From IMG/VR virus record IMGVR_UViG_3300028833_000003: DNA of 64,000 bases. One strand, given 5' to 3'. The first letter of the stretch is position 1; each line of letters begins with the position of its first letter. The notes below the pieces were generated by a model, which was given only the letters and a program-made list of their open reading frames with translations, did no database searches and was not told the DNA's origin. This document shows positions 31,137 to 46,056 of this stretch, in pieces. Source of the DNA: a virus. A program made the position numbers and the translations under genes.

Positions 31137-31185
31137 GTCCAGTATTGACAGAACAAAAAAAATATGTTAAAATAATATAAAGGAG

Positions 31186-31467
31186 ATGATAGCATTGGTT
31201 TGGTTATTTGTAATAATTGTCGCGCTGTTACTGCCGATTTGGTATAATACAATTCCTATACCGGATATGAATGAAGTGAATGTTGTATGGCATCAAAAAT
31301 ATATAGGCTGGACATGGTGCGACAAGGATAAAAATGAACACCGCATTGGCCGATTGACTGCGTGGAAAATGTTATTAGATTATCCTGCTCGTTTGGTTGT
31401 ATATACTTGGAACACAGACGATGATGATGAAGAAGATGAGGATGATAGGAATACTATTGAATTATAA
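31186..31467 (+). CDS. small membrane protein with acidic tail (93 aa)
   Basis: Promoter at 31145; AAGGAG abuts ATG 31186, so the in-frame TTG 31195 is the more likely start; TM segment then DDDDEEDEDD. Confidence 0.6.
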   Translation: MIALVWLFVIIVALLLPIWYNTIPIPDMNEVNVVWHQKYIGWTWCDKDKNEHRIGRLTAWKMLLDYPARLVVYTWNTDDDDEEDEDDRNTIEL

Positions 31468-31589
31468 GGAATGCTTTTTCTATTGTTTTCCCAAAAATAT
31501 GGGGTGGTAAGAGGTTCCAGGCAAAAAAAATTTTTCACTTTAAAACCAATTAATTCCTGAAACATACGCCCCCCATTTCATTCTCACGC

Positions 31590-31616
31590 CGGCGCGCCAG
31601 CGGCCATGGCGCGCCG
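31590..31616 (+). terminator. GC-rich hairpin (GCGCGC-core class)
   Basis: 9-bp stem CGGCGCGCC/GGCGCGCCG with 9-nt loop; weak U-run. Confidence 0.45.
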
Positions 31617-31851
31617 AGTTTGCCTGTATTTTTACCCCACAAAAAATTAATTGTCTATTGTCGCCTTTCTGGTAAATAGCGACGGTGCCCGAAACTTTGA
31701 CCCCGAGAAAATGTATAAGTAGTGCATACTTATACATTTATTTTGTATATAAAAAAAATTATGATACCCCAGAAAAATTTTTAAAAAAAGTATTGACAAT
31801 AGTAAATTGGTGTGCTATAATAAGTACATCAAGAGAAAGGAGCTAACCGCT

Positions 31852-32181
31852 ATGAAGAACAACGACTGGTGGTCCATCGCGTGCATTATTACATTAGTTA
31901 TCATCACTGTTATTGTGAGCCTGGGTGTGGGCATGTCAATCCAGAAAAGAGACATGGTAAATCGGCTTTACCCCAATGTGGCTTATGTGGTTGAGATAGA
32001 CCGCGCAACAGATACCCTAACAGTGGAAGACTCAATAGGCCATCTGTGGAGCGTGCAAGGTGTAGAAGACTACATACTGGGCGACTTGGTAGGCATGGTC
32101 ATGGACAGTATGGGCACAGACTTAGTGTATGATGATGAAGTGGTCAAGATGCACTATTGTGGAGGATGGAACGAAGTATAA
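31852..32181 (+). CDS. small membrane-anchored protein (109 aa)
   Basis: Promoter -35 at 31793, AAGGAG RBS, ATG 31852 (ORF-track start 31807 lies inside the promoter); N-terminal TM helix. Confidence 0.75.
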   Translation: MKNNDWWSIACIITLVIITVIVSLGVGMSIQKRDMVNRLYPNVAYVVEIDRATDTLTVEDSIGHLWSVQGVEDYILGDLVGMVMDSMGTDLVYDDEVVKMHYCGGWNEV

Positions 32182-32286
32182 TAAAAAAATTTTTAAAAAA
32201 GTATTGACATTAATATTCATTTGTGATATACTTTAATCAAGGTAAGGGAAGTGCTTACCGGAAACAGTTAAGAGGAGGACATTACA

Positions 32287-32493
32287 ATGACAGTTTATCG
32301 CATGTTCGCTACCGAATACAATCATCGCTCCTGTGTCCGCATCTTCAAGCCCGAACAGCTTCCAACTGTTAAGCCCTTCCTGCGTCGGTATTGTGCTGAA
32401 AGCGCACCAAATACCATTGTTGAACTTGTCAAGTATGTCAATGGCAAAGCCGAAAAGTGTGTTTATAAGGTACAGAAACCTGGCAATAAATAA
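32287..32493 (+). CDS. hypothetical early protein (68 aa)
   Basis: Promoter -35 at 32204, GAGGAGG RBS. Confidence 0.7.
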   Translation: MTVYRMFATEYNHRSCVRIFKPEQLPTVKPFLRRYCAESAPNTIVELVKYVNGKAEKCVYKVQKPGNK

Positions 32494-32575
32494 AAAAAAT
32501 TAAAAAAACCTATTGACAAATCCCGAAACCCGTGTTATAATGAGCATGTAAAAAGGAAACAGGGAGGACAAACAA

Positions 32576-32761
32576 ATGACTAACATCTTGACAATCATCT
32601 TCGTCGCTATCATCGCTTTTGAAGTCTTTGCGGTATCACCCTTTGGATTATACTTTGCATCAAAAGATTATGACAATGGCAAGCCGATGCGTGTGTTGAT
32701 TGCGGCGTTTGTCCTTGCCATTCCAGCGATAGTCATTGCAGAAATTTTAGGAATAGCGTAA
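32576..32761 (+). CDS. small two-TM membrane protein (61 aa)
   Basis: Promoter -35 at 32513, GGGAGG RBS; hydrophobic throughout. Confidence 0.7.
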   Translation: MTNILTIIFVAIIAFEVFAVSPFGLYFASKDYDNGKPMRVLIAAFVLAIPAIVIAEILGIA

Positions 32762-32828
32762 AAAAAGTATTGACAAAAAGAACGTTGTGTGTTATAATAA
32801 GACCATCAAGAGAGAGGAGACTAAGACA

Positions 32829-33029
32829 ATGATGTACGAACTGGTTCTCACCTATGACGATGGAGCGATGAAGAAAGAAACTGCCAAACTGCCGAACCTG
32901 ATGAGCGCATTGGGCATCTACATGGAGGACGACAGCTGGTGCTACGCACAGATAACGAACTGCCAGACTGGCGAGGTCATCGCCATCTGGGAGAACAACA
33001 GCGAGTATGGTGTCACAACTGCGGGCTGA
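32829..33029 (+). CDS. hypothetical early protein (66 aa)
   Basis: Promoter -35 at 32770, GAGGAG RBS, ATG 32829. Confidence 0.7.
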   Translation: MMYELVLTYDDGAMKKETAKLPNLMSALGIYMEDDSWCYAQITNCQTGEVIAIWENNSEYGVTTAG

Positions 33030-33048
33030 CCGAAAGGCCAGCCTTTTT
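33024..33048 (+). terminator. intrinsic terminator
   Basis: Stem GGCTGACC/GGCCAGCC (one mismatch), GAAA loop, T5; overlaps the TGA of 32829..33029. Confidence 0.65.
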
Positions 33049-33057
33049 CCTTTCGCC

Positions 33058-33083
33058 GGCGCGCGCACGAACGTTTGCGCGCC
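33058..33083 (+). terminator. GC-rich hairpin (GCGCGC-core class)
   Basis: 7-bp stem GGCGCGC/GCGCGCC, 12-nt loop. Confidence 0.4.
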
Positions 33084-33221
33084 GAATTCGCGCACAACTA
33101 TACCCAGCACAATTCACGCGCCAAAAAGTGCAGAAAAAAAATTGCAAAAAATTTTCCTAAAACTATTGACAAGCTCGGCACGGTATGCTATAATAAGTAC
33201 AACAAAGCAAGGGAGGACACG

Positions 33222-33533
33222 ATGATGATTAACATCCGCACTATCCGCAAGCTGAGCAACAACGATGGGCTGACACTCAAAGCAGGTAAGGCTATCACAT
33301 ACAAAACAGGTTATCAGGTAGCAACAGAAGGCATGGAATGCACCACAGCAGAGCAGGCTATCAAAGCGGTTAAGCAGTACGGCGGAAACTGTGGCGTGTG
33401 GTTCTCTGATGGTGTGTATTACATTGACAAGAGCCACAGAGTAAGCACCAAGCGCGAAGCGCTCACAGTGGGCAAGGCACACAATCAAATCTCTGTGCTT
33501 AAATGGTCTAACATGAGTTTGATTTATTGCTAA
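33222..33533 (+). CDS. hypothetical early protein (103 aa)
   Basis: Promoter -35 at 33166, GGGAGG RBS, ATG 33222. Confidence 0.75.
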   Translation: MMINIRTIRKLSNNDGLTLKAGKAITYKTGYQVATEGMECTTAEQAIKAVKQYGGNCGVWFSDGVYYIDKSHRVSTKREALTVGKAHNQISVLKWSNMSLIYC

Positions 33534-33610
33534 AAAAGTTTTAAAAAGTGCTTGACAACAACAGCCAAACGTGATATAATTAAGCCATCAAAGAGAGGGA
33601 GGACGACACC

Positions 33611-33796
33611 ATGATGAAGCACAGCAGAGAGATGACCGCAGAACAGCACCTGATGATTCTGGAAGAGCGCTATGAGGTCAAGGTCAAGGGCACAACTATT
33701 ATCGTTTATACTGATGAAGATGGAGAGACCACGCAGGTAGTGAAAGATTACATGGTGCATTTTTCGCGCAAGGGTTATAAAATAATTTACAAATAA
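33611..33796 (+). CDS. hypothetical early protein (61 aa)
   Basis: Promoter -35 at 33552, GGGAGG RBS. Confidence 0.7.
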   Translation: MMKHSREMTAEQHLMILEERYEVKVKGTTIIVYTDEDGETTQVVKDYMVHFSRKGYKIIYK

Positions 33797-33858
33797 CCCT
33801 TGACAAATAGAACCAACGGTGCTATAATAGAGACATCAAAAGACAGGGAGGCGAAACG

Positions 33859-34023
33859 ATGGCAAAGCGGTACGTAACTCGGCAGTATCTCTGGAATACA
33901 TTCTACACTTGGGGAGTGTGGGATAAAAAAGAATGTAAATGGATTGTTAATGATAGATTGTACAGAAGAAACGTCATAGAAATCGCTGACAAATTAAACA
34001 AAGAAGAACAAAAAAAGTATTGA
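33859..34023 (+). CDS. hypothetical early protein (54 aa, below ORF-track cutoff)
   Basis: Promoter -35 at 33800, GGGAGG RBS, ATG 33859; its TGA (34021-34023) lies inside the -35 TTGACA of the next cassette. Confidence 0.6.
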   Translation: MAKRYVTRQYLWNTFYTWGVWDKKECKWIVNDRLYRRNVIEIADKLNKEEQKKY

Positions 34024-34077
34024 CAAATAACCGCGCGTATGTTATAATTGAGCCATCAAATGAAGGAGGTCATGCAG

Positions 34078-34287
34078 ATGACTGTTAAGGAACTGATGAA
34101 GAAGCTGGCAAAGATGGATCCTGAAATGAAAGTGTGCTTCCCTGATACTTATGAACAAAACGAAGGTTGGGGCCAATATCCTGAGTATTGCATTGTCGGC
34201 GGTGCCGAAGTGGAAGATGGGCGCGTGATGTTGTGGGCAGGTGAAGACACTGCACGCGAAGAAAAAGATAATGATGAAATCGAATAA
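34078..34287 (+). CDS. hypothetical early protein (69 aa)
   Basis: Promoter -35 at 34020, GAAGGAGG RBS, ATG 34078 at 8-nt spacing. Confidence 0.7.
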   Translation: MTVKELMKKLAKMDPEMKVCFPDTYEQNEGWGQYPEYCIVGGAEVEDGRVMLWAGEDTAREEKDNDEIE

Positions 34288-34351
34288 AAAGTATTGACAA
34301 ATCCTAAAACCCGTGCTATAATAAAAACATCAAATGAAGGGAGCCACAACA

Positions 34352-34522
34352 ATGAAGAAAGAAATCACTTACACTGAGCAGGAGCTAAAAAAGTGGTTCG
34401 AAGAAATGAAAAAGAAATATCCGCACTCGATGGCCGAAGAACATTTTAGTTTTGTTGAAATGAACATGTTTGACCATCAATGGCACGAAGAAAATAATTT
34501 GAAAATAGTGCTTGACAAATAA
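34352..34522 (+). CDS. hypothetical early protein (56 aa)
   Basis: Promoter -35 at 34294, AGGGAG RBS, ATG 34352. Confidence 0.65.
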   Translation: MKKEITYTEQELKKWFEEMKKKYPHSMAEEHFSFVEMNMFDHQWHEENNLKIVLDK

Positions 34523-34569
34523 TCAAACGTGTGCTATAATTAAACTATCAAATGAGGGAGGGCAAGGCA

Positions 34570-34794
34570 ATGAAGTTTTGGAAGAAAGAAAACAAAAAGG
34601 AAGAGGGATACAAAATTGCTTTTTGTGACACGCCTGATCTTTCAACTAAGTTTGGTGAATGGAAAGGAACTTTTGATAGTTATTCTTCGGCCGACCATTG
34701 CATCAGAATGGGATGGGGAAAAGCTATCAAATCAAAAGCAACTGACGCATACGAAATTGATAGTGCATGGCTTGTTATCGAAAAAATTTCTTGA
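34570..34794 (+). CDS. hypothetical early protein (74 aa)
   Basis: Promoter -35 at 34512, GGGAGGG RBS, ATG 34570. Confidence 0.7.
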   Translation: MKFWKKENKKEEGYKIAFCDTPDLSTKFGEWKGTFDSYSSADHCIRMGWGKAIKSKATDAYEIDSAWLVIEKIS

Positions 34795-34892
34795 AAATTT
34801 TTTCAAAAAAGGATTGACAAACCCACCAGACCGTGTTATAATAGAGACACAAAAGGGAAAGGAAAATCCCCAACACCAGAAAGGAAACTACA

Positions 34893-35111
34893 ATGACGAA
34901 GATCTACACCGTGGCTGTGATGAACCGCTTTGAGAATGACCACACTGAAACCAAGTATTTCACCACCAAAGAAAAAGCCATCAAGTATGCGGAAAAGATC
35001 AACGCCAAATACGAAGAAGCAAGAGCTAACAAAAATTATTTCGAGATGGTCTATCATGTGGCGATGGACTGGGGCATCAAAGAGGTTATGGCCGATGAAG
35101 AAGAGGAATAA
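34893..35111 (+). CDS. hypothetical early protein (72 aa)
   Basis: Promoter -35 at 34814, AAAGGAAA RBS-like, ATG 34893. Confidence 0.7.
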   Translation: MTKIYTVAVMNRFENDHTETKYFTTKEKAIKYAEKINAKYEEARANKNYFEMVYHVAMDWGIKEVMADEEEE

Positions 35112-35197
35112 AAATCCTCTTCTTTTTTTCAAAAACCTATTGACAAATCCCGAAACGTATGTTATAATTAAGCCATCAAATGAAGGAGGACGAAACG

Positions 35198-35350
35198 ATG
35201 ATGAAGGTTTATCTGGTCTGGTATTTCAACCCTGAGGTGAGCGAAAATCAGGCGATGCTGTGGGGACTTTACACCACGAAAGAGAAGGCCGAGAAAGCGC
35301 TGACTGAGTGCGGATTTCATGGATGGATTAATGAAGAGGTCGCGGAGTAA
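35198..35350 (+). CDS. hypothetical early protein (50 aa, below ORF-track cutoff)
   Basis: Promoter -35 at 35140, GAAGGAGG RBS, ATG 35198, TAA 35348; followed by GC hairpins. Confidence 0.6.
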   Translation: MMKVYLVWYFNPEVSENQAMLWGLYTTKEKAEKALTECGFHGWINEEVAE

Positions 35351-35371
35351 TCCGCGGCCCTTTGCTTTGGG

Positions 35372-35399
35372 CCGGTCGCGCGCGGGCGTGCGCGACCGG
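35372..35399 (+). terminator. GC-rich hairpin (GCGCGC-core class)
   Basis: 9-bp stem CCGGTCGCG/CGCGACCGG, 10-nt loop, at the end of the 33.2-35.35 kb gene block. Confidence 0.5.
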
Positions 35400-35404
35400 A
35401 GTTG

Positions 35405-35650
35405 GCCTGCGTAATAGTCTTGTAATAATTTTGTAACAAATTCGTAACACTTTTGTAACAAAATTGTAATCCCGAAATTGTTACGAAAGTATTAAATTTT
35501 TATTACAAAAATTTAATACTTTTTTAATAATATTTAATAATTATAAGAAAAGAATAAAAAATCGTGGAAAAATGCGATTTAACATAATCTTAATACTTTT
35601 GTAACACTTTTGTAACAAAAAAAGTGATTTTGTAACACTTTTTTAACAAA
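35405..35650. repeat. iteron array 1: repeated (T/C)GTAA(C/T)A / TGTTAC motifs in AT-rich non-coding DNA
   Basis: At least 10 copies, e.g. TTTTGTAACA at 35429, 35451, 35596, 35607, 35627; shares a ~45-nt block (CCCGAAATTGTTACGAAAGTATTAAATTTTTATTACAAA) with 46586-46629. Confidence 0.8.
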
Positions 35651-35734
35651 AAACGCTTGACAAGTGCCCGTGTAGGGTGTATAATGAAGTCACAAAAGAG
35701 GTCAAGGACAGACCGAAAAACCAGAAGGGGCAAA

Positions 35735-36241
35735 ATGATGATGAACCGGAATTACAATCCCGCGTGCGCGATGAACAGCCTGTCTTATATGGTTACCAAA
35801 TACCACAAGCTCTCCGCGTCTCACATTTACTTCTTCGGTTTTGAGTTTAACGGCGCTGTTTATGCCTACACCAGCAAGAACCTGCCCCGTAAAGTCCTCC
35901 GCACTGAAAAGGCTTCCTCTAAGAACGGCGGTTTCCGGCAAGTCAAGTTCCGCCCCACTAAGTTCTGGAAGATGGACATGATCCTCTCCGGCAAAGCTAT
36001 CAAGGTCGCTGATATGGCCGACTTTATGGCTCTTGCTCCTAAGAACAAGGGTTGCAAGTTTGAAATGTGGGTAACTGAAACCTACACCAGCGAAAAGTGG
36101 GTCAAGGATAGCGTCCGGTTTGACAAGGCTGGCGATGTGGTCATCAACGGCGAAAACGTCCAGGTCAAGTTTGAAGGCGCCGAAGTCATCAACGAACGTT
36201 CTCTCCGCAATGCTTACTATGATGCGATGGGGCTGGCCTAA
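35735..36241 (+). CDS. hypothetical early protein (168 aa)
   Basis: Promoter -35 at 35657; ATG 35735 after a purine-rich leader (ORF-track start 35657 is the promoter itself); followed by a hairpin. Confidence 0.7.
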   Translation: MMMNRNYNPACAMNSLSYMVTKYHKLSASHIYFFGFEFNGAVYAYTSKNLPRKVLRTEKASSKNGGFRQVKFRPTKFWKMDMILSGKAIKVADMADFMALAPKNKGCKFEMWVTETYTSEKWVKDSVRFDKAGDVVINGENVQVKFEGAEVINERSLRNAYYDAMGLA

Positions 36242-36332
36242 GCCCCATCCATCCCGGGCCCTATATGAAAAAAACTATTGACAAAATCCAAATTATATGA
36301 TATAATCCAAATGTACCAAGAGAAAGGAAGTA

Positions 36333-36776
36333 ATGAGAATGACAAAGGCAATTTGGTTCGATATGGATGGCACAATCGCTGACCTATATGCGGTGGATGG
36401 CTGGCTGGCTGACCTGCAAGCGGAAAATACAAGGCCCTATGATGAAGCGAAAGTGATGCACAATATGGCAAGGCTGGCGCGATTGCTGAACACTTTACAG
36501 CGCAATGGCTACACCATCGGCATTATCAGCTGGACCAGCAAATGCGGTTCTGACCTCTACAATGGCGCGGTCGCTCTGTCAAAACTCTGCTGGCTGAACA
36601 AACACTTGCACAGTGTCCAGTGGGATGAAATCAAGATTGTAAAGTATGGCACTAACAAGCGTGAAACCTGCGGAGATGGTATCTTGTTTGATGATGAAGA
36701 AGGAAACCGCAAGGCATGGGGCGAAAATGCTTATACACCTGACAAGATTTGGGAAGTGCTGACTGCTCTGCGGTGA
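36333..36776 (+). CDS. HAD-superfamily phosphatase, 5'(3')-deoxyribonucleotidase-like (147 aa)
   Basis: Promoter -35 at 36278; WFDMDGTIADL is HAD motif I (DxDxT); later ILFDDEEGN; start at ATG 36333 or 36339. Confidence 0.65.
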   Translation: MRMTKAIWFDMDGTIADLYAVDGWLADLQAENTRPYDEAKVMHNMARLARLLNTLQRNGYTIGIISWTSKCGSDLYNGAVALSKLCWLNKHLHSVQWDEIKIVKYGTNKRETCGDGILFDDEEGNRKAWGENAYTPDKIWEVLTALR

Positions 36777-37157
36777 AGCACTCCCAAACCCGGGCGCGAA
36801 AAAAAATTTTTAAAAACCTATTGACAAAATCGCAATCATGCCTTATAATAATAACTGTCAAGAGGACGAGGGCGCGTCCCTGAGAGAAAAAAATCTCTTC
36901 AAACCCTCTTGACAAACCCTCAAAAGTATGGTACAATGAACAAGACGAAAGGGGATGAGCCAAATGGTCTAAGCAAGCGTGGTGTGGGTGTGGGATGAGA
37001 AGCCCAACACAACAAGACCGCAAAAGTTCTCAAAAAAAGTTTCAAAAACCTCTTGACAAACCCAACCAACCATGATATAATAAAGATGTTCCAAGGGAAC
37101 AACAAAAACAAAAGGCAAGCGGATAAGCCCCACAAACCGCAGAAAGGAATTGATACT

Positions 37158-37532
37158 ATGACTACCACCATCACCAACATCTCTGCTCTGAACACTGCTA
37201 TCGAAACTCTGACCGCTGTCGAAGGTATGGAAGAGGTTGTAACCAAGCTGACCAACATCAAGGCTTCTTATGAGAAGCGTGCGTCTGCGGAGCGCAAGCC
37301 CACCAAGGCGCAGATTGCCAAGAAGGAAGAGAACGCCGCTTTTGCGGAGGAAGTCTTTGAAGCAATCAAGGAAACTCCTGCGACTGCCAAGGCTCTGGCT
37401 GAGCGGTTCGCTGTCACTCCGCAGAAGATGACTTCTGCTCTGGTCGCTCTGCGCAAGGCTGGGCGCATCAATGACAAGGAACAGGAAAAGAAGTCCTGGC
37501 CTCACATCTGGCAGGTGGCTGTGGGCGCGTAA
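37158..37532 (+). CDS. paralog family A member 1: helical N-terminus, basic KPTKAQ linker, winged-helix-like C-terminus (124 aa)
   Basis: ATG 37158 after AGAAAGGAATTGATACT leader; three stacked promoters upstream (36821, 36909, 37053); paralogous to 38452, 42897, 44509, 55953. Confidence 0.75.
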   Translation: MTTTITNISALNTAIETLTAVEGMEEVVTKLTNIKASYEKRASAERKPTKAQIAKKEENAAFAEEVFEAIKETPATAKALAERFAVTPQKMTSALVALRKAGRINDKEQEKKSWPHIWQVAVGA

Positions 37533-37621
37533 GCGCCCCAGCCCTGGGCCCGGGCGAAAAAACTTCTTGACAAATCAATAGCAACATGATATAATAATCA
37601 TGTTGAAAGGAGCTGAACCAA

Positions 37622-38095: not shown

Positions 38096-38105
38096 AAATT
38101 GAAAC

Positions 38106-38127
38106 CGCCCTTTTGTAGGGCGTTTTT
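38106..38127 (+). terminator. intrinsic terminator
   Basis: CGCCC-TTTTGTA-GGGCG followed by T5, 10 nt after TGA 38095. Confidence 0.65.
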
Positions 38128-38451
38128 CATTTTCATTTTCCCATTGCCCTCGGCCGGGCCGCGCGCGGTCGCCCAGGCTGCGTGCGGGCCGCATTTGCGC
38201 ACCAACAGGCCCAACACAAAACCAAAACCAAAATCAGCGAGCGAAAAAAATTTTAAAAAAATCCTAAAAACCTATTGACAGGCACCCCATTTGGTGATAT
38301 ACTTATATTGTTCCTGAGGGGAACAGAAACGAAAAACCAAAAATGAAATTAAAAAAAATTTCAAAATGGTCTTGACAAACTGCTCACCCTCTGGTATAAT
38401 AAAAGAGAAGAAAGGGAAGGACACCCTACAAACCAGAAAGGAATTGATACC

Positions 38452-38817
38452 ATGACTAACAAAATGACTTACTCTGATGCCCTCCGCAACGCTATCGCCA
38501 CTGTCACTGATGAAGCTACCAAGTCCCGCCTTGAAGATTTGCTGGTTTCCATTGAAAAGCGTTCCAACTCTGAGCGCAAGCCCACCAAGGCCCAGCTGGA
38601 AAAGCAGGAAGAAAACAAGGCCCTGGCTGAGGTTGTGTTCAAGGTGCTGTCTGCTCACAGGGTTGAAGCTTCTGTCGCTGAGCTGAAAAAGCTGGACGAT
38701 CAGCTTGTCGATCTGTCCTCCCCTAAGCTGACCGCTGTGCTGAAAATCCTGATCGACCAGAACAAGGTTTCTAAGGATGACAGTGGAAGGGTTGCCAAGT
38801 ACATCGCCCTTGACTAA
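38452..38817 (+). CDS. paralog family A member 2 (121 aa)
   Basis: ATG 38452 after AGAAAGGAATTGATACC leader; two stacked promoters (38275, 38372); ERKPTKAQLEKQEENKALAE shared with members 1 and 4. Confidence 0.75.
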   Translation: MTNKMTYSDALRNAIATVTDEATKSRLEDLLVSIEKRSNSERKPTKAQLEKQEENKALAEVVFKVLSAHRVEASVAELKKLDDQLVDLSSPKLTAVLKILIDQNKVSKDDSGRVAKYIALD

Positions 38818-38945
38818 CAAACAGAGGGCAGGGGAAACCCTGCCCTCCTCCCGCCCCGGGCCGAGAACCTTAAAAAAACTATTGACAAGCTGACAATCCT
38901 GTGCTATAATCTTATTGAAATCAATACGAAAGAGATGATGACAAA

Positions 38946-39521: not shown

Positions 39522-39584
39522 AAAAGGGATTGACAAATCCCTTCCCATGTAGTATAATAATGGTGTTGAAAGGAGCTGATAAAC

Positions 39585-39734
39585 ATGGCGAACAAGAGCA
39601 AAAGCAAAGTCAAGAATAGCTATGAAATCAACAAAGGCATTCGGCGCGATTGGGGCAACATCAACCCTGTTACAAAAATCATACCAGACAAGCGCAACAA
39701 GAAACCTAAGCACAAAAAAAATTGGGAAGAGTGA
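39585..39734 (+). CDS. small very basic protein (49 aa, below ORF-track cutoff)
   Basis: Promoter -35 at 39530, AAGGAG RBS, ATG 39585, TGA 39732. Confidence 0.55.
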   Translation: MANKSKSKVKNSYEINKGIRRDWGNINPVTKIIPDKRNKKPKHKKNWEE

Positions 39735-39805
39735 TACACACCTATTGACAAATTTAAAAAAATGTGATATAATAATTATAGAAAATCAGAAAGGAAGTGT
39801 GCGTA

Positions 39806-40255
39806 ATGGCAAAGCAACAGCGGCAACCCACTCCACCTACCAGAGAATGGATTGATGAATGGATTGACAAGTATTTGGAAGAGCATCCAAATGAAATCAT
39901 TGAAGATTTCCAAGGGCTGGAAGATCAAGCTGACTATGAGTGGTGGTGCAAAGAGATTGACGCAGGACGCCCCACACCTTACGACTTGACCAAAGAGCAA
40001 GAAAAGGAAAGCCACAAAGCAAGAGTAACGCCTGGCGGAAGTGGCAAGCCCAAGGCAAACACTGAGCGCAAGCGCAAGCCCAATGACACAAAGAGAACCA
40101 TTATCGGCTGGGTTCAAACCTTGTTTGAAGGTTTCGCTCTTAATGACAAAGTGGCTAATGTGATTGTCTCCAATGTTGAAAGGTCAATAGATTTTGAAAT
40201 GGATGGCAAGCATTATACATTGAGCCTGACAGAGCATCGCCCACCTAAAAAGTGA
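39806..40255 (+). CDS. paralog family B member 1 (149 aa)
   Basis: Promoter -35 at 39745, AAGGAAG RBS, ATG 39806; shares ...YDLTKEQEKE...HRPPK with 45008..45436. Confidence 0.7.
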   Translation: MAKQQRQPTPPTREWIDEWIDKYLEEHPNEIIEDFQGLEDQADYEWWCKEIDAGRPTPYDLTKEQEKESHKARVTPGGSGKPKANTERKRKPNDTKRTIIGWVQTLFEGFALNDKVANVIVSNVERSIDFEMDGKHYTLSLTEHRPPKK

Positions 40256-40367
40256 GCGGTGCTTTTTTTCGGCCCGGGCCAAAAATTTTTTTCGCAAACC
40301 TATTGACAAACCTCTTTCAGAGTGCTATAATAACATTGTTCCAAGGGAACAGAAAGGAAGTAAAATT

Positions 40368-40604
40368 ATGAAACCTATCAAAATTGCTGGCACTGTCTTT
40401 GATGCTGATGCACTTTCTATTGAAGCAATTGATGCGTTAATTGAAAAACTTGAAGAAGCAAAATGCACACAACGCCGCAAAAAGGCAGAAGAATACGCAG
40501 AGAAAATTCATAACTTAATTATCGAAGCAAAACAGCAAGATTTAAATGTGATGATTGACAATGAATGGATCCCTGATGATTTCAGAGTTGATGTTTATAT
40601 CTGA
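40368..40604 (+). CDS. hypothetical early protein (78 aa)
   Basis: Promoter -35 at 40303, AAGGAAG RBS; first of a five-gene AT-richer operon. Confidence 0.7.
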   Translation: MKPIKIAGTVFDADALSIEAIDALIEKLEEAKCTQRRKKAEEYAEKIHNLIIEAKQQDLNVMIDNEWIPDDFRVDVYI

Positions 40605-40639
40605 TAATACAAATAAGCAATAGAAAGGAAATAAAAGCA

Positions 40640-40855
40640 ATGTATAAAACAACTTGGATGATCACTGATGAAAGTGATGAAGGCACATTCCAGACAGAGC
40701 TGACCTTGTATCATTTTGGCAAGCGTCCCAAGTTCCCTCGCTGGTACATGGGAGAAAATCATTCTTATCAGATTGAAATGATTTGGAATTTCCATCTGAT
40801 TGTTCGCCCTTCTATTTTCTTTAAATGCCTGACCCATCAATACATTATCAGATGA
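40640..40855 (+). CDS. hypothetical early protein (71 aa)
   Basis: AAAGGAAA RBS-like 8 nt upstream of ATG. Confidence 0.55.
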   Translation: MYKTTWMITDESDEGTFQTELTLYHFGKRPKFPRWYMGENHSYQIEMIWNFHLIVRPSIFFKCLTHQYIIR

Positions 40856-40870
40856 AAGGAAGTATCCACA

Positions 40871-41155
40871 ATGAGAGACGCGAAAAAAGGAACTTATAAT
40901 GATAGTTATACTTATTGCCCTGTTAATGCGTATGGAGATTGTCCTTACTGTGACCAAAGTGATGTATGCCACATCGATGATCCTCTCAAAGATTGCGATG
41001 ACTGGGGCGCGTTTTGGGAGAGCTGGGAAGACTGGCTAAACGCTGATGATGCAAACCCTGATGCACCAGAGGATTTTGCGGAAGATGAAATCCGCTGGGC
41101 TGGTGATGTGTATGGCTATGAAGATACAATGGAGGACAACAATGAATACTTATGA
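40871..41155 (+). CDS. acidic Cys-containing hypothetical protein (94 aa)
   Basis: AAGGAAG RBS; CPVNAYGDCPYCDQSDVCH. Confidence 0.65.
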   Translation: MRDAKKGTYNDSYTYCPVNAYGDCPYCDQSDVCHIDDPLKDCDDWGAFWESWEDWLNADDANPDAPEDFAEDEIRWAGDVYGYEDTMEDNNEYL

Positions 41156-41315
41156 AATCATGATTAATTATCTTAACTATGTATTTCCAAACAGAAAATT
41201 TAGTAAAGAATATTTAGACATCCTTTACGCTATCTTTATAAAGGGATATGGCGAAGGCGAACTCGCGGGAGAAATTGAAGCAAATAAATATTGGAGCGAA
41301 AGGAAAGAAAAATAA
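41142..41315 (+). CDS. hypothetical early protein (57 aa)
   Basis: ATG 41142 behind GGAGGA, overlaps the end of the previous gene; ORF-track start 41046 is unlikely. Confidence 0.55.
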   Translation: MNTYEIMINYLNYVFPNRKFSKEYLDILYAIFIKGYGEGELAGEIEANKYWSERKEK

Positions 41316-41319
41316 ATAA

Positions 41320-41535
41320 ATGTATAATTATAATAATGACCCATTTGCGAAGGGCACACAAAAATATCAACAAGAGATAGTCGCAAAAGCATTAAATGAC
41401 CATTTGCTCAAATGTGTTAAAAATAGTTATTGGTGCGCTCATTGCTCTCTAAATCATAGTGGCATCTGCTTTTTTGCAAAAGAATGTTTTGAGAATGATC
41501 GAAAATATTATAGAGAAGATGATGAGGAGGAATAA
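41320..41535 (+). CDS. hypothetical early protein (71 aa)
   Basis: Contiguous with the previous gene; ends before CCCGGG motif and next promoter. Confidence 0.6.
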   Translation: MYNYNNDPFAKGTQKYQQEIVAKALNDHLLKCVKNSYWCAHCSLNHSGICFFAKECFENDRKYYREDDEEE

Positions 41536-41633
41536 ACTTCTCATTTTGCCCGGGCCAAAAAATTTCAAAAAAGTATTGACAAGCTGAAACAAATGCTGTA
41601 TAATAGCTATGTAATCAAGAGGAGGTAATCAAG

Positions 41634-41786
41634 ATGAAGACTTTGAAGGTGCTGGCTGTGATTGGTTGCTTACTGACTATCTGGGGTCTGGTGTGGGGTA
41701 TCTTCATCAAAGATTTCATTTGGGGTGCGTTTGTTGGTCTGGCGCTAATAATGCCTTATCTGGTTTGGGGAGATGAGGAAGAATGA
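41634..41786 (+). CDS. small membrane protein (50 aa, below ORF-track cutoff)
   Basis: Promoter -35 at 41576, GAGGAGG RBS, ATG 41634; two hydrophobic helices. Confidence 0.6.
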   Translation: MKTLKVLAVIGCLLTIWGLVWGIFIKDFIWGAFVGLALIMPYLVWGDEEE

Positions 41787-41941
41787 AAAGAAGTCTTTAC
41801 AAGCGTTATGATGATTTAGCCTGCTGGGATTTGGACAAAGGATGTAGGCGCATCATTGACCAGTCTCGACCTGGTAGGCGTCGCCTGAAAAAGGTTCTTC
41901 GGCGTCAAGCGCGCAAGCGGTTAAATCAGCGGGAAGAATAA
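41783..41941 (+). CDS. small basic protein (52 aa, below ORF-track cutoff)
   Basis: ATG 41783 overlaps the previous TGA (ATGA); Arg/Lys-rich. Confidence 0.45.
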   Translation: MKRSLYKRYDDLACWDLDKGCRRIIDQSRPGRRRLKKVLRRQARKRLNQREE

Positions 41942-42031
41942 CCGCCCGGGCGAAAAAAATTTCTAAAAAGCTATTGACAACCTATCAAGATGGTGCTATA
42001 ATAAGCATGTAATCAAGAGGAGGTAATCAAA

Positions 42032-42547
42032 ATGACTAAGAACACTTACGAAGCTCGCGCCTATAAGTTCGCCACTTTCCTTGCTCGTCTGTTTGCTGGT
42101 TGCTCTTCTCTGGAAGATTTCATGTGGGCGCTGGACTATTACAACGCTACGCACTCTCGCAAACTGCGCTGGGCGCATGGTGTTTCTCGCATTGCGATTA
42201 TCCGCTCTGACTATGTTATCAAGTTTAACATGGTGCCTGATGAAGAATGGGAAGATGGTCGCGCTGGCAACTGCGAAAGCGAAGAAGCGGTCTATGAGCG
42301 CGCCTGCGAAGATGGCTTTGAGTATCTGCTGGCTAAAACCACTGTTTGCACCATCGAAGAACACACTTTCTCTATCATGCCTCGCATTAACCATGTGAAT
42401 GATTGGACACGCGACTGGACAGAGTATTGCACTGATGAAGAATATAACTGGCTGGTGCAAAATGTGAATGACTTGCATGAAGGTAATGTGGGATACAGAA
42501 ATCGAAAAGTGTGCGTAATCGACTACGCCTGGGACGCGGAAATGTAA
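42032..42547 (+). CDS. putative atypical protein kinase-fold protein (171 aa)
   Basis: Promoter -35 at 41974, GAGGAGG RBS; order VIKFN ... NCESEEAVY ... DLHEGNVG ... VIDYAWD matches Lys / alphaC-Glu / catalytic D-x4-N / metal-binding Asp of small kinases (by eye). Confidence 0.6.
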   Translation: MTKNTYEARAYKFATFLARLFAGCSSLEDFMWALDYYNATHSRKLRWAHGVSRIAIIRSDYVIKFNMVPDEEWEDGRAGNCESEEAVYERACEDGFEYLLAKTTVCTIEEHTFSIMPRINHVNDWTRDWTEYCTDEEYNWLVQNVNDLHEGNVGYRNRKVCVIDYAWDAEM

Positions 42548-42568
42548 TCCGCGCCCTTTTGCGTTCGA

Positions 42569-42595
42569 CCGCGCGCTGCCGGATGTGGCGCGCGG
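42569..42595 (+). terminator. GC-rich hairpin (GCGCGC-core class)
   Basis: 8-bp stem CCGCGCGC/GCGCGCGG, 11-nt loop, after 42032..42547. Confidence 0.5.
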
Positions 42596-42896
42596 CATTT
42601 GCCCCACAGCATACCCCACACAATTTTCGGCGCGAAAAAAAGTTCAAAAAAAACTTCAAAAAAATTCCTAAAACCTATTGACAAGACCAGCGAAAGCGAG
42701 TATAATAATAACTGTCAGGAGGGCAAGAGAACATCCTCTCCCCTGATGGCACTGGCAAGGACGCTCTGACAAGATGCGGAAACTTCAAAAAAAAGTTTGA
42801 AAAACCCCTTGACAAAGCGCTGAAAGTGTGATACAATAAGGATGTCAAATGAAGGGGAGCTGATAAACCCCACAAACAGAGAAAGAGGTAGATACC

Positions 42897-43280
42897 ATGA
42901 TGAACACCAAGATGACTAACAAGAGCGCTCTGTCCTTTGTCCTGACCAACTGCGAAGTGCCTGCGGATGTCAAGGAGCGTCTGGAAGCGATGCTGGCTTC
43001 CCTTGAAAAGCGTTCTGAGAACGCCAAGGGCAAGGAGCGCAAGCTGTCTCCCAAGCAGGAGCAGGAGCGCAAGGAGCGTGAGGAGTTCCGCTCCAAGGTG
43101 TATGAGACTATGTGTGAGAACCTGAACTTCGAATACACCTGCAAGGGTCTGGCTGACCTGTTCGCTGTCTCTTCTCCCAAGATGGCGAACGCTCTGACCA
43201 AGCTGGTTGAAGCTGGCAAGGTTGAGCGTCTGGTTTCCACCACCAACAAGTCCAAGGTGTGGTTCAAGGTGGTAGCGTAA
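42897..43280 (+). CDS. paralog family A member 3 (127 aa)
   Basis: ATG 42897 after AGAAAGAGGTAGATACC leader; two stacked promoters (42678, 42809). Confidence 0.75.
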   Translation: MMNTKMTNKSALSFVLTNCEVPADVKERLEAMLASLEKRSENAKGKERKLSPKQEQERKEREEFRSKVYETMCENLNFEYTCKGLADLFAVSSPKMANALTKLVEAGKVERLVSTTNKSKVWFKVVA

Positions 43281-43412
43281 GCTACCACCGCCCCACCTGG
43301 GGCGCGCCGGGGCCGAAAAAAAATTTTTAAAAACCTATTGACAAAGCTTTAAAACCGCTGTATAATAAACATGTTCCAAGTGAGAACAAAAGAAAGAAAG
43401 GATTTGATAACA

Positions 43413-44069
43413 ATGGCTTCTAAGTATAATGACATTTTTGGTGATACTGAGACGCTGGGTCCGCTGGATAGCCCCATCATTTACAATGGTTACATGCATT
43501 GCAGGGAAACAGATGAAGAAGTAAATGCACTGATTAATGAATATTTCTTCAACCTTGAAAAATTCGCCACAGCGTATTATGCAAACAAGCGTCCGCAATA
43601 TTTGGACGATTTGTGGGACAGCAAAATCTTTGCTGAAAATTTTTGGGACTTCCGCAAAAAAGTGCTTGCCATGCTCAACCCCAATAAAAAGAACAGATTT
43701 TTCGCTCACAATGCGAGATTTGATGTTATGGCATTGAATAACACTTGCAGAGCGTTAAGCGATGGAAAAGTGAAATATTTCTTCCCCTATGAAGTTGAAG
43801 TTTGTGATACTCTCAAAATGGCGCGTCAAGTTGTCGCAAAAATGCCCACCTACATCAAATACTGTCAAGAGAATGGATACATGACCAAGCACAAGACGCC
43901 CAGGGTTCGCCTGACCGCTGAAATTCTTTACAGATTTATTACAAAAGATGAAGAATTTAATGAAGAGCACAGAGGGAAAGAAGATGTTCTGATCGAAGAA
44001 AAAATTTATGACTACATCAAGAGACAGCATAAAAAGTGCAATCCTGCGCTCTACGCCCGCAAGGCATGA
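43413..44069 (+). CDS. DEDDh (DnaQ-like) 3'-5' exonuclease (218 aa)
   Basis: Promoter -35 at 43338; FGDTETLG (Exo I), FFAHNARFDVMAL (Exo II), EEHRGKEDVLIE (Exo III, H-x4-D). Confidence 0.7.
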   Translation: MASKYNDIFGDTETLGPLDSPIIYNGYMHCRETDEEVNALINEYFFNLEKFATAYYANKRPQYLDDLWDSKIFAENFWDFRKKVLAMLNPNKKNRFFAHNARFDVMALNNTCRALSDGKVKYFFPYEVEVCDTLKMARQVVAKMPTYIKYCQENGYMTKHKTPRVRLTAEILYRFITKDEEFNEEHRGKEDVLIEEKIYDYIKRQHKKCNPALYARKA

Positions 44070-44508
44070 GCGCAGGCGGCCCGGGCCGAAAATTGTATAC
44101 AAAAAAAATTTCAAAAACCTATTGACAAGAACCTGAATCAGCAGTATAATATAAGTGTCCCAAGGGGCAAGGGACAGTCAAGGCCAGGTTGCCGAAAGTC
44201 AACAGAGACAATACGCATGGACTACAGAAACATTTGGCCATTAGCAAACACAATGTGCGAAAAAAGTTTGCGAAACCCCTTGACAAAGCCCACAACCTGT
44301 GGTATAATGCAAATGTAAGATAAAGGAAAGGGGAAAAATAAAAAGCCACCCCAATCCCAATGCGCAAAAATGCAAGGCTTTGCTTCCATGTGCTTCTTAC
44401 AAAGTCAAGAAATAAAAAATAAAAAAAGTTCTTGACAAACACCACAAAGCATGATATAATAAAGATGTTCCAAGAGAACAAAAGGAAAAAAAGAAAGAGG
44501 TAATGAAA

Positions 44509-44898
44509 ATGACTAACATCACCAAGAACATGAAGTACGCTGACATCCTCTCCATCCTGCATGGCGAAAATCCTGCCTATGGTTGCTCCATCGAAACTCT
44601 GACCGCTTTCATCGAACATGAAATGGAACTGACCGCGAAAAAGAACGCGGCTCCCAAGAAGCCTTCCAAGGCTCAGGTGGAGAAGCAGGAGGAGAACAAG
44701 GTTCTCGCTCAGACGCTGTTTGAAGTCCTCGCGGCTCATGGTAAGGATGTAAGCGTCGCGGAAATCAAGAAACTGGATGATCGCTTTGTGGATCTGTCCT
44801 CTCCCAAAATCACTGCGCTGTTGAAAATCCTGATGGATGAAAACCGCATGGTCAAAGATGATAGCGGAAGGGTGGCAAGGTATCAGGTTCTCGCCTGA
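44509..44898 (+). CDS. paralog family A member 4 (129 aa)
   Basis: ATG 44509 8 nt after AAAGAGG (in-frame ATG 44503 too close to RBS); three stacked promoters (44122, 44280, 44432); closest to member 2. Confidence 0.75.
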   Translation: MTNITKNMKYADILSILHGENPAYGCSIETLTAFIEHEMELTAKKNAAPKKPSKAQVEKQEENKVLAQTLFEVLAAHGKDVSVAEIKKLDDRFVDLSSPKITALLKILMDENRMVKDDSGRVARYQVLA

Positions 44899-45007
44899 TA
44901 CCTCCGCCCCTCGCGGGCCCGGGCGCGAAAAAAACATTTTCAAAAAGGTATTGACAAGCTGATTGCAAGGTGCTATAATAGAACCATCGAAAGGAGCTGA
45001 TGACAGT

Positions 45008-45436
45008 ATGACGAAGGAACAGTACATTGAACAGTATCTCGATGAGTATGAGCGCAAGCACCCTGATGAACGAATTGATTATGAAAAGTTGCGTGAGCAG
45101 GCTGACTGTGAATGGTATGACAAGCAGGTAGATGCAGGCAAGAAGACTGAATACGATTTGACCAAGGAGCAAGAGAAGGAAGCCAAGAAGGCTCGACAGT
45201 ATGCCAAGTCTGACAAGGAGCGCAAGAAGGTTGTGCGGGAGCGCAAGCCTGATGAGGACAAGCGCGAAATCATCGAAGTCATTGCACAGAATTTGAAGCG
45301 CGTTTGTACTGAGGATGACCAAATGGCAAAGGAAATCACTGTTGTAAATCCTGAGCGTGAAGTCACCTTTATTTTGCGGGGCGTTGAATACAGCGTCCAG
45401 GTTATCAAGCATAGACCGCCCAAGGCCCCTCAGTGA
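45008..45436 (+). CDS. paralog family B member 2 (142 aa)
   Basis: Promoter -35 at 44951, AAGGAG RBS, ATG 45008; paralog of 39806..40255. Confidence 0.7.
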   Translation: MTKEQYIEQYLDEYERKHPDERIDYEKLREQADCEWYDKQVDAGKKTEYDLTKEQEKEAKKARQYAKSDKERKKVVRERKPDEDKREIIEVIAQNLKRVCTEDDQMAKEITVVNPEREVTFILRGVEYSVQVIKHRPPKAPQ

Positions 45437-45540
45437 GGGGCCGCCCGGGCGAAAAAAAATTTTTAAAAAGTATTGACAAGTGCGCGAATGGATGCTATAA
45501 TAATGGTGTTCCAAGAGAGAACAGAAAGGGCTGATAAAGA

Positions 45541-45771
45541 ATGTGTGATTGTGTAGCAAGTGCAATGTTAAATGATTACGAGCGACAAGCATGGACCTTT
45601 ATCGAAAAGGGAACCCGCATCATTAAACTTTGCACAGAATTAAGACAATTAAATTGTAACAAAGAAACTGTTGATTTTGCTTTGGTGTGGTTAGAACGCT
45701 CAAAGAAAACTCCTGAGGAAATTATTCAAATGGTCAAGCTCTATCACAAAGATTTGGAGGATGAAAAATGA
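45541..45771 (+). CDS. hypothetical early protein (76 aa)
   Basis: Promoter -35 at 45473. Confidence 0.65.
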   Translation: MCDCVASAMLNDYERQAWTFIEKGTRIIKLCTELRQLNCNKETVDFALVWLERSKKTPEEIIQMVKLYHKDLEDEK

Positions 45772-45977
45772 ATATTGTGGCGCGTGGGTATAGCATTTCA
45801 CTGAACAAAGAGGAAGAAAATTTTACAAACAAGATAGTCGATTTTGTTGATAAGCTGGAAAAGGAAATCTTTGAAGCTGGTGCATTACCTCCTGATGATT
45901 TGCAAACAGTTTTTGATGCTTTAAGAGATAACGCCTGCAAGCTCAGAGACAATGAATTTTATGATGAAGGAGAATAA
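45768..45977 (+). CDS. hypothetical early protein (69 aa)
   Basis: ATGA overlap with the previous gene, GGAGGA RBS. Confidence 0.65.
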   Translation: MNIVARGYSISLNKEEENFTNKIVDFVDKLEKEIFEAGALPPDDLQTVFDALRDNACKLRDNEFYDEGE

Positions 45978-46056
45978 AAAAAGTATTGACAATCCTTCCC
46001 ACCTGTGTTATAATGAACATGTTCCAAGAGAGAACAAAAGAAAGGAAAGATAAACT

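Follow-up and report, generated by a model that had tools for sequence, protein, structure and literature searches.

Why would a phage place a near-perfect housekeeping-type promoter in front of almost every gene in a long run of very small ones? This question is raised by the virus record IMGVR_UViG_3300028833_000003 of IMG/VR, of which we have analyzed one stretch of 64,000 nucleotides (hereafter the window). Between positions 31145 and 46525, its + strand carries an array of 36 promoter cassettes and 37 small genes, arranged in six blocks that appear to be closed by terminators, with a coding density of 70.6%. We consider it probable (roughly 0.7) that this array represents the immediate-early region ("host-takeover" or ORFan region) of a TAG-recoding phage, transcribed by the host holoenzyme and built of exchangeable cassettes. 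The timing, promoter strength, terminator activity and recombination mechanism that belong to this reading we infer from the sequence and by analogy.

Thirty-six promoters on one strand

An exact scan of the window found 32 perfect TTGACA-N17-TATAAT sites, compared with 0.03 expected from dinucleotide-preserving shuffles. All but one (31/32) were on the + strand between 31793 and 46014, the remaining perfect site being at 63152. Five additional + strand sites had a single mismatch in the -10 hexamer, namely TAAAAT at 31145, TATACT at 32204 and 38275, and TACAAT at 36909 and 42809. This gave a total of 36 promoters between 31145 and 46014 (31 perfect and five with one mismatch), every one on the + strand and with a spacer of exactly 17 nt, as an earlier note on this DNA had reported, variants included. 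The density of one promoter per 413 bp (14,870 bp/36) was also very close to the ~410 bp given there. In a generic promoter scan, these 36 sites scored 11-12/12 and all other candidates in the region 10/12 or less. A comparable density of the motif on both strands was looked for as well; the minus strand within the array had no 17-nt-spacer site at one mismatch or fewer, its single near-match being an 18-nt-spacer site at 32676.

The additional promoter elements were just as regular. A TG at -15/-14 was present in 29/36 sites, in agreement with its having been described in most of them, and the majority of the 36 aligned sites had an A at -29. Upstream of the -35, the alignment of the 36 sites showed A at -44..-40 (29-35 sites), T at -48..-46 (22-27 sites) and A at -55..-50 (24-29 sites). 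Most cassettes thus carry an A6-T3-A5 pattern at -55..-40, which confirms the A/T-rich UP-like block noticed before and makes it larger than claimed. Such a two-part A/T tract is the layout of a full UP element, as in the Escherichia coli rrnB P1 promoter and the SELEX consensus. Two of the promoters (31145 and 39745) resemble a second promoter class of the window, described below, in having an A/T-rich spacer and no UP tract.

We have then looked for relatives of the source phage. The virion protein encoded at 17017-18099 is 38-40% identical to proteins of the Enterococcus phages EF1 and VRE9. A match of this protein to phAss-1 was also seen, along with weaker ones to Lactococcus phage 949 and Brevibacillus phage Sundance. 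NCBI places phAss-1 in the "Caudoviricetes code 15 clade," and its authors predicted a host among the Clostridia (PMC10607447). The source phage, a large one (~169 kb) from gut or rumen, probably belongs to a clade that includes phAss-1 and EF1 and probably has a Bacillota host. Close relatives were not detected: when the array was compared with 50,697 phage records by megablast, nothing matched, and a tblastn search with a neighboring 603-aa protein found nothing either. A look-up of identical proteins yielded the source contig and a single 971-bp fragment and nothing else, and the best IMG/VR match was at 67% amino acid identity.

The architecture itself recurred in more distant genomes. Among the matches listed in a pattern scan of IMG/VR, 25 of 120 loci had at least nine co-oriented near-perfect sites, one per 330-950 bp, and many of these loci shared HAD-like, exonuclease-like and 168-aa proteins with the window, whose array was the largest among those matches. 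The gene content of the array varied widely among relatives. Sixteen loci were retrieved by homology to the HAD-like protein alone, and in 13 of these, the gene strand had 6-19 perfect sites and the opposite strand 0-2. In all 16 orthologues, a -35/-10 pair was found directly upstream of the HAD-like gene at the same place, with unrelated spacers and leaders. Arrays were also present in two deposited genomes, those of phAss-1 (L137, OQ749652, 118048-135976, reverse strand; 17 sites in 8.3 kb) and EF1 (MF001358; 12 sites on the minus strand at 65.1-69.7 kb). The comparison thus shows that the promoter-array architecture is a trait of the clade. An assembly artefact was ruled out, as the same architecture was found in dozens of independent contigs and in the two deposited genomes.

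Two side observations concern these relatives. Many -35 hexamers in phAss-1, and at least some in EF1, lie in the loop of a G-run/C-run hairpin (e.g., GGGG-TTGACAAAT-CCCC). In addition, many related arrays are located at the very ends of 80-195-kb IMG/VR contigs (L001, L003, L005, L016, L030, L034, L115 and others), possibly because assembly broke off at the repeated cassettes or because the genomes really end there. The window's array sits ~20-35 kb from one end of its 169-kb contig.

Substitutions were counted in 48 cassette pairs from relatives that were 88-99.5% identical. The -35 and -10 hexamers had changed at 1 of 576 positions and the spacer at 33 of 576 (Fisher p = 2.6e-9), and the region further upstream (-95..-56) at 82 of 1,893. 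The TG rows and the -14..-13 rows, pooled, gave seven changes in 192 positions, a sum that says nothing on the conservation of the TG. Near-invariant hexamers next to a changing spacer are strong comparative evidence that the hexamers are used, and the comparison shows them to be under purifying selection. Together with the motif statistics and the placement in 16/16 orthologues, this well supports the view, held in the earlier note, that the sites are near-consensus promoters of the housekeeping sigma type (sigma-A/sigma-70), about one per small gene. The shuffles, the confinement to one strand and the conservation ruled out chance or a compositional artefact. We have also rejected the idea that a phage-encoded sigma factor or polymerase recognizes the sites, since these fit the host consensus in every element.

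Cassettes, genes and blocks

A typical cassette begins with a G+C-rich hairpin over or just past the preceding stop codon, often followed by GCCCGGGC. Then come the two-part A/T UP-like tract, TTGACA(A), the 17-nt spacer, usually with TG, TATAAT, a leader of 15-70 nt and a strong Shine-Dalgarno sequence with the start codon. The 37 genes encode proteins of 49-218 aa and each has a Shine-Dalgarno sequence; this gene list, the number and size range of which had been given in the earlier note, agreed with gene calls made independently on the 168,974-bp source contig. The idea of one promoter per tiny gene held roughly. Thirty of the 36 promoters lie 15-70 nt upstream of a start codon with a Shine-Dalgarno sequence, four of the promoters each serve two to five genes, and six (36821, 36909, 38275, 42678, 44122 and 44280) are followed by no open reading frame (ORF) before the next promoter.

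The array is split by six composite elements, in each of which a hairpin with a T run, like that of an intrinsic terminator, stands at a gene end and is followed by a second hairpin that is part of a G+C-rich repeat of ~80 nt (CGCCGGCGCGCG...GCGCGCCG...ACCCCACACAATTTT). They follow the genes ending at 31467, 33029, 35350, 38095, 42547 and 46458 and delimit blocks of one, four, eight, six, eight and nine promoters. In what follows, the promoter coordinates span the -35 to the -10 on the + strand and are based on the motif scans and the gene list; a promoter has a 12/12 match and a TG unless stated otherwise, and the gene that it precedes is given in parentheses.

The first block has the single promoter 31145..31173 (TTGACA-17-TAAAAT, 11/12, with an A-rich spacer and no UP tract), which precedes a 90-aa gene with a TTG start (31195-31467). 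It ends at 31588..31618 with the G+C-rich inverted repeat CGCCGGCGCGCC..GGCGCGCCG, followed by ACCCCACA. The second block contains the promoters 31793..31821 (31852-32181, 109 aa), 32204..32232 (TATACT, 11/12; 32287-32493, 68 aa), 32513..32541 (32576-32761, 61 aa) and 32770..32798 (32829-33029, 66 aa). At its end (33024..33084), a double terminator is predicted, made of a stop-codon hairpin with a T run and then a G+C-rich hairpin.

The third block is the most compact. Its promoters are 33166..33194 (33222-33533, 103 aa), 33552..33580 (33611-33796, 61 aa), 33800..33828 (33859-34023, 54 aa), 34020..34048 (34078-34287, 69 aa), 34294..34322 (34352-34522, 56 aa), 34512..34540 (34570-34794, 74 aa), 34814..34842 (34893-35111, 72 aa) and 35140..35168 (35198-35350, 50 aa), and a composite double terminator is predicted at 35338..35399. 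Two of these promoters overlap the preceding gene: the TGA of gene 33859-34023 (34021-34023) falls within the -35 hexamer at 34020-34025, exactly as first noticed, and the gene upstream of promoter 34512 runs through its -35. The statement that gene ends abut the next cassette was correct mainly for this part of the array (32770-35140). From 35657 on, a G+C-rich hairpin spacer of 30-64 nt intervenes.

In the fourth block, promoter 35657..35685 (no TG) precedes a 168-aa gene (35735-36241) of a family that recurs in relatives, and promoter 36278..36306 precedes the HAD/5'-nucleotidase-like gene (36333-36776, 147 aa). They are followed by two ORF-less promoters, 36821..36849 (no TG; leader with the 5' end TGTCAAGAGG) and 36909..36937 (TACAAT, 11/12), and by 37053..37081, with the 5' hairpin GTTCCAAGGGAAC (37158-37532, 124 aa, family A), and 37567..37595 (37622-38095, 157 aa). 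The predicted composite double terminator is at 38106..38189.

The fifth block opens with the ORF-less promoter 38275..38303 (TATACT, 11/12) and continues with 38372..38400 (38452-38817, 121 aa, family A) and 38882..38910 (38946-39521, 191 aa). Promoter 39530..39558 (39585-39734, 49 aa) lacks the TG and has its -35 in a GGGA..TCCC loop, and 39745..39773 (39806-40255, 149 aa, family B) has the A/T-rich spacer of the second class. Five genes (40368-41535) follow 40303..40331, which has a 5' hairpin, and two (41634-41786 and 41783-41941) follow 41576..41604, which has no TG. The cassette of the last promoter, 41974..42002 (42032-42547, 171 aa), is 84% identical over 94 nt to that of 41576..41604. 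The block ends with a predicted composite double terminator at 42531..42595.

The sixth block starts with 42678..42706 (no TG), an ORF-less promoter with the conserved leader GTCAGGAGGGCAAG, followed by 42809..42837 (TACAAT, 11/12; 42897-43280, 127 aa, family A) and 43338..43366 (no TG, 5' hairpin), which precedes the exonuclease-like gene (43413-44069, 218 aa). Promoters 44122..44150 (no TG) and 44280..44308 are again ORF-less, and downstream of the latter lies ATGTAAGATAAAGG, similar to the second promoter class. The remaining promoters are 44432..44460 (5' hairpin; 44509-44898, 129 aa, family A), 44951..44979 (45008-45436, 142 aa, family B), 45473..45501 (5' hairpin; 45541-45771 and 45768-45977) and 45986..46014 (5' hairpin; 46057-46257 and 46258-46458). 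A composite double terminator predicted at 46443..46512 closes both the block and the array.

Hairpins are also found between genes. From 35657 on, nearly all gene 3' ends form a G+C-rich hairpin whose loop contains or adjoins the stop codon, and (G)CCCGGGC and then the UP tract come next. At least 12 cassettes from 35140 on have such a stop-codon-spanning hairpin on their 5' side (-10 to -35 kcal/mol), and most of these hairpins are followed by GCCCGGGC; for most cassettes between 31793 and 34814 the gene-end hairpins are weak or absent. The motif CCCGGGC occurs at 10 places between 36253 and 45450, all intergenic (17 strand-hits vs. 1.7 expected). The ten (G)CCCGGGC palindromes start at 36253, 36789, 37548, 38855, 40272, 41548, 41944, 44079, 44917 and 45443, each preceded by a gene-end hairpin and followed by the next UP tract. 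Within blocks, a few more hairpins that resemble terminators come after 35111, 40255 and 41535.

The leaders were analyzed on the assumption that transcription starts 7 nt past the -10, which gives 5' untranslated regions of 15-70 nt. Eight of them open with a 5'-terminal hairpin (GUUCC..GGAAC and variants), and eleven with AUCAAA/AUCGAA followed by an AAGGAGG-type Shine-Dalgarno sequence. Stabilisation of mRNA by 5'-terminal structures and by Shine-Dalgarno-like "5' stabilisers" is known from Bacillus. The ORF-less cassettes have the conserved leader GUCAGGAGGGCAAG. A scan with Rfam gave nothing in 30.5-48 kb at E ≤ 1, and in the whole window only seven of the eight tRNAs reached the gathering score, so that the ORF-less units are not members of a known RNA family. 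On folding, four of the six units had z-scores between -0.03 and -1.35, and two had -2.6 and -3.4.

One of these leaders deserves a separate remark. The sequence GTCAGGAGGGCAAG(A) lies at the transcript start directly 3' of the -10, at 42714, with a variant at 36857, and it is kept in L026, L048/L091, L121 and phAss-1 (L137, position 7138), phages whose proteins are only ~40% identical. It resembles a Shine-Dalgarno sequence placed at the 5' end, with no start codon nearby, and may serve as a ribosome-binding 5' stabiliser or as part of a small RNA.

The ORF-less promoters bear on the proposal of the earlier note that so many consensus promoters would massively titrate the host RNA polymerase. 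In its strong form, the array would chiefly sequester the polymerase and starve the host genes, with expression of the ORFs being secondary. All affinity elements are indeed present (UP tract, -35, TG and -10), six promoters serve no ORF, two to three promoters stand in tandem within 100-250 bp, a pattern that recurs in relatives, and the coding density is just 70.6%. Against this, 36 promoters and 15 kb of template per genome would engage a few hundred polymerases at most, compared with the thousands present in a bacterial cell. The promoter position is kept relative to orthologous genes, and the TAG-free genes with strong ribosome-binding sites show selection for translation. Thirty of the 36 promoters stand precisely before a Shine-Dalgarno sequence and a gene, which argues for expression rather than for a decoy role. 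Massive titration as stated is thus not supported, and we regard a polymerase sink as unlikely.

Scans against Pfam and PHROGs gave no functional annotation for 35 of the 37 array proteins. The two annotated ones are the HAD/5'-nucleotidase-like and the exonuclease-like proteins; otherwise, these scans gave weak helix-turn-helix hints. Two paralogue families were recognized, family A with four members of 121-129 aa (37158-37532, 38452-38817, 42897-43280 and 44509-44898) and family B with two (genes starting at 39806 and 45008), which leaves 31/37 genes with no paralogue inside the array. The C-terminal part of family A has a predicted winged-helix-like fold (AlphaFold2 pLDDT 76; weak Foldseek matches to ArsR/MarR/CzrA, E ≥ 0.013). 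Every family A gene is preceded by two to three tandem consensus promoters. Family A is also multi-copy, with tandem promoters, in the relatives L016, L053, L121 and L124.

The presence of putative regulators inside the array is one argument for reading the promoters differently, as polymerase-bound but mostly silenced "promoter islands," or as promoters of the middle phase, or constitutive ones, that depend on a phage factor. Dense, transcriptionally silent promoter-like islands are known in E. coli (PMC7054387), the four winged-helix-like proteins could regulate the array, and GTAAC repeats phased at 11 bp flank its larger sub-array. Yet promoter islands are irregular, occupy both strands and are not phased with genes, whereas the sites studied here are co-oriented, about one per gene, and have conserved hexamers. 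The second promoter class, with its conserved spacer and start region in the neighboring blocks, is a better candidate for factor dependence. Silent or differently timed promoters are therefore very unlikely in our view.

The genes of the array also differ from the late genes in their use of the stop codons. The 37 genes end in TAA (21) or TGA (16), never in TAG, and no in-frame TAG is present. In contrast, the minus strand of 1-31082, which carries late and structural genes and has matches to portal and virion proteins, is near-fully coding only if TAG is read as sense (code 15-like). The ORFs of at least 100 aa on the minus strand of 1-31 kb total 5,016 aa under the standard code and 9,825 aa with TAG as sense. 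A 4,508-aa ORF at 1383-14909 (-) has 99 in-frame TAG codons, and the portal-like ORF 25116-26675 has four. Because the array genes are TAG-free, they would be translatable before the phage switches the cell to TAG as sense.

The window has a cluster of eight tRNA genes at 61459-63571 (+), namely Thr-GGT, Lys-CTT, Thr-CGT, Val-TAC, Gln-CTG, Ile-TAT, Glu-CTC and Met-CAT. No TAG-suppressor tRNA was among the tRNA genes of this 64-kb stretch.

Exchange of units and the proposed working of the array

The cassette had been suggested to act as a duplicating module. This was partly borne out, since both paralogue families have been copied along with their promoters and the cassettes of the window are 75-95% identical over 40-90 nt. 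The clearest signal, however, was replacement in relatives. Three loci (L128, L129 and L132) with flanks that are 91-97% identical differ in the slot behind the HAD-like gene, where each has a gene unrelated to those of the other two (coordinates 650-1420, 10380-11260 and 10390-11190, respectively). The slot encodes proteins of 156 aa, 127 aa (an ORFan) and 104 aa, the last of which looks AbrB/SpoVT-like by its N-terminal motif. On the left, the slot is bounded by the gene-end hairpin and a GCCCGG motif, and on the right by the UP tract of the following promoter. With 31 of 37 genes unpaired and such slot replacement in relatives, the cassette is better described as a module of recombination and shuffling than as one that duplicates itself.

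A repeat that carries promoters could also be spreading for its own sake, as a small mobile element (MITE-like or a homing site) whose promoters are passengers or by-products. The identity of 75-95% over 40-90 nt extends beyond the functionally needed positions, the GCCCGGGC palindrome is confined to the array, and promoter-gene units are replaced between relatives. But terminal inverted repeats and target duplications were not seen, and in the Pfam and PHROGs scans of the window, neither a transposase nor a homing endonuclease turned up in the array or next to it. Moreover, all 36 cassettes are oriented with the genes, and in most of them the spacers are unrelated whereas the hexamers are strongly constrained. 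We therefore give the selfish repeat hardly any credence.

A further possibility extends the exchange to the whole clade. The cassettes might form an active gene-capture and exchange system of TAG-recoded gut and rumen phages. GCCCGGGC and the gene-end hairpin would then be a dedicated site of recombination or RNA processing, and the promoter-ORFan units would be mobile, for instance as mini-circles of the kind described for T4-type phages (see below). The six ORF-less GUCAGGAGGGCAAG-leader cassettes would be early non-coding RNAs or decoys for polymerase or ribosomes. We find this extended proposal rather improbable.

For the immediate-early reading that we prefer, the following sequence of events can be proposed. 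The unmodified host holoenzyme with its housekeeping sigma factor would recognize all cassettes as the DNA enters, with no phage factor required. A maximal promoter of its own for each tiny gene would let one copy of the genome express all these genes quickly, at the same time, at very high levels and independently of position. The six double terminators would close and insulate the blocks, the inter-gene hairpins would attenuate read-through or stabilise 3' ends, and the 5' hairpins with the strong ribosome-binding sites would stabilise the messages. The TAG-free genes would be translated ahead of the recoding switch. Over evolutionary time, the repeated cassettes would act as homology anchors at which recombination swaps, deletes and duplicates promoter-gene units.

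Several points weigh against this reading. Six gene-less promoters are left unexplained by a simple model of one promoter per gene. The T run is missing from most inter-gene hairpins, so that termination there is doubtful. The words "early," "strong" and "terminator" are drawn from sequence and analogy. When all elements of a promoter are consensus, escape can become the limiting step, so that the strongest binding does not necessarily give the highest output. As to exchange, homology-block ends in all related loci fell inside cassettes in 51 of 123 cases, compared with 22.8 ± 4.4 expected, but non-coding DNA diverges faster and could produce such an enrichment, which makes this statistic supportive and not decisive. 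Finally, module exchange was shown in relatives; for the window's own genome, for which no close relative was found, it is probable by extension.

The array offers a natural set of 36 near-ideal housekeeping-sigma promoters with the same 17-nt spacing, most of them with a UP tract and an extended -10, and with naturally varying spacers and leaders. Such a set would be useful for studies of promoter strength and escape in Bacillota and as a source of compact, strong expression parts, and the comparison with relatives reveals which promoter positions are constrained. The 35 unannotated small proteins are candidate host-takeover or anti-defence factors. Enterococcus phage EF1 is a cultured relative in which these proposals can be tested.

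The sequences next to the array have features of their own. The second promoter class has the form TTGAAA-AWTTWAAAAAAATWTGA-TATAAT-ATATATGTAAG(A/G)T, with a conserved A/T spacer and start region. It occurs in ~11-14 copies, located at 48946-63180 (+ and -), 50302(-), 31136(-) and 15702(-), and it is present in phAss-1 and EF1 as well. It putatively drives the adjoining gene blocks, the tRNA cluster and TAG-containing minus-strand genes, and these sites may be middle promoters that need a phage factor. At 31108-31173, the arrangement is divergent: a promoter resembling this class (31136-31108, -) for a TAG-containing gene stands back to back with the first promoter of the array (31145, +).

GTAAC/GTTAC repeats phased at 11 bp form two related clusters, the only ones in the window, at 35412-35657 and 46528-46790. 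They flank the sub-array 35657-46458 and may be a protein-binding or DNA-bending boundary. Past the array, ~6-7 copies of (A)ACCCGACCGG(G) lie at 47050-47340 and several CATATGC(G/A)CC repeats at 46795-47155, with no long ORF there. This repeat stretch (46795-47340) could be a replication origin or a packaging site.

Known systems compared

The closest counterpart that we have found is the promoter-early stem-loop (PeSL) of the T4-type phages RB49/phi1, PST and nt-1, repeated in ~50 cassettes per genome. A PeSL combines a near-perfect TTGACA-N17-TATAAT, an A/T-rich upstream region, a G(n)-loop-C(n) stem-loop and the Shine-Dalgarno sequence and start of the downstream ORFan (PMC2839356, PMC4122927). 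PeSLs cluster in hyperplastic regions, and experiments have demonstrated very strong promoters, effective terminators, modular shuffling and mini-circles (PMC2839356, PMC4122927). The array described here likewise has near-perfect promoters with 17-nt spacing, A/T-rich upstream sequences and a G/C stem-loop at or over the promoter. Its cassettes also extend from the stop codon of the preceding gene to the Shine-Dalgarno sequence and start of the downstream ORFan. In both cases, the variable regions are rich in ORFans, and the insertions, deletions and replacements between close relatives are bounded by cassettes (here in L128, L129 and L132).

The differences are also clear. The 36 cassettes form one contiguous 15-kb array, compared with ~50 scattered ones in the T4-type phages, and the lineage is unrelated to these, with a host that is probably Gram-positive. 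The hairpin usually lies over the stop codon and is followed by GCCCGGGC, whereas in phAss-1 and EF1 it encloses the -35; the latter type corresponds to a subclass of PeSLs in which stem-loop and -35 overlap. An extended -10 TG together with a two-part UP tract is standard here, and double terminators divide the array into six blocks. Promoter, terminator and mini-circle activities of PeSLs are experimental, whereas those of the present array are putative. The phage does not group with the T4-like myoviruses, as its structural proteins are similar to their counterparts in phAss-1 and in some large Bacillota phages, namely EF1, Lactococcus phage 949 and Brevibacillus phage Sundance. All the sequence-level features of PeSLs are thus found in the array, which, given the unrelated phage lineage, is on this evidence a functional analogue of PeSL and not a member by descent. 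Its interest lies in that an exchangeable unit of promoter, hairpin and one ORFan arose in a lineage and host phylum far from T4, and that it is tied here to stop-codon recoding, the cassette-driven genes avoiding TAG and the late genes depending on it.

SPO1's host-takeover module, the nearest analogue from a Bacillota host, is similar in scale and content, with 26 small early genes in 12.4 kb and with the promoters and ribosome-binding sites of highly expressed genes (PMC6873191). Both are clusters of ~12-15 kb, with mostly small genes and strong promoters and ribosome-binding sites, in a phage of a Bacillota host (a probable one in our case). The SPO1 module is located in the terminal redundancy of SPO1 and has ~12 operons for 24-26 genes, on both strands, whereas the array uses the + strand only. 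An identical scan of the first 14 kb of SPO1 gave no perfect and five one-mismatch sites, compared with 31 and five in the array, and a tblastn search of SPO1 1-14000 with the 37 proteins found no match at E ≤ 1e-3.

Strong promoters for the host polymerase, near the host consensus and often with A/T-rich upstream sequences, drive the early genes of T4, T5 and T7, and the early promoters of rV5/CBA120-type phages are reportedly near the host consensus as well. Early promoters of the T4/T5/T7 type usually depart from the consensus at one or more elements, and the transcription units that they serve are longer. To our knowledge, descriptions of such phage early promoters contain no report of 31 perfect 12/12 sites in 15 kb.

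The code 15 gut phage phAss-1 is placed in the same clade by protein similarity, and it shares with the source phage TAG in late genes and an early region that is compatible with the standard code. The paper on phAss-1 contains no occurrence of promoters or early genes (PMC10607447), and the array is therefore undescribed for this clade. Taken together, these comparisons make the array a very dense, previously undescribed instance of a design known from T4-type phages and SPO1.

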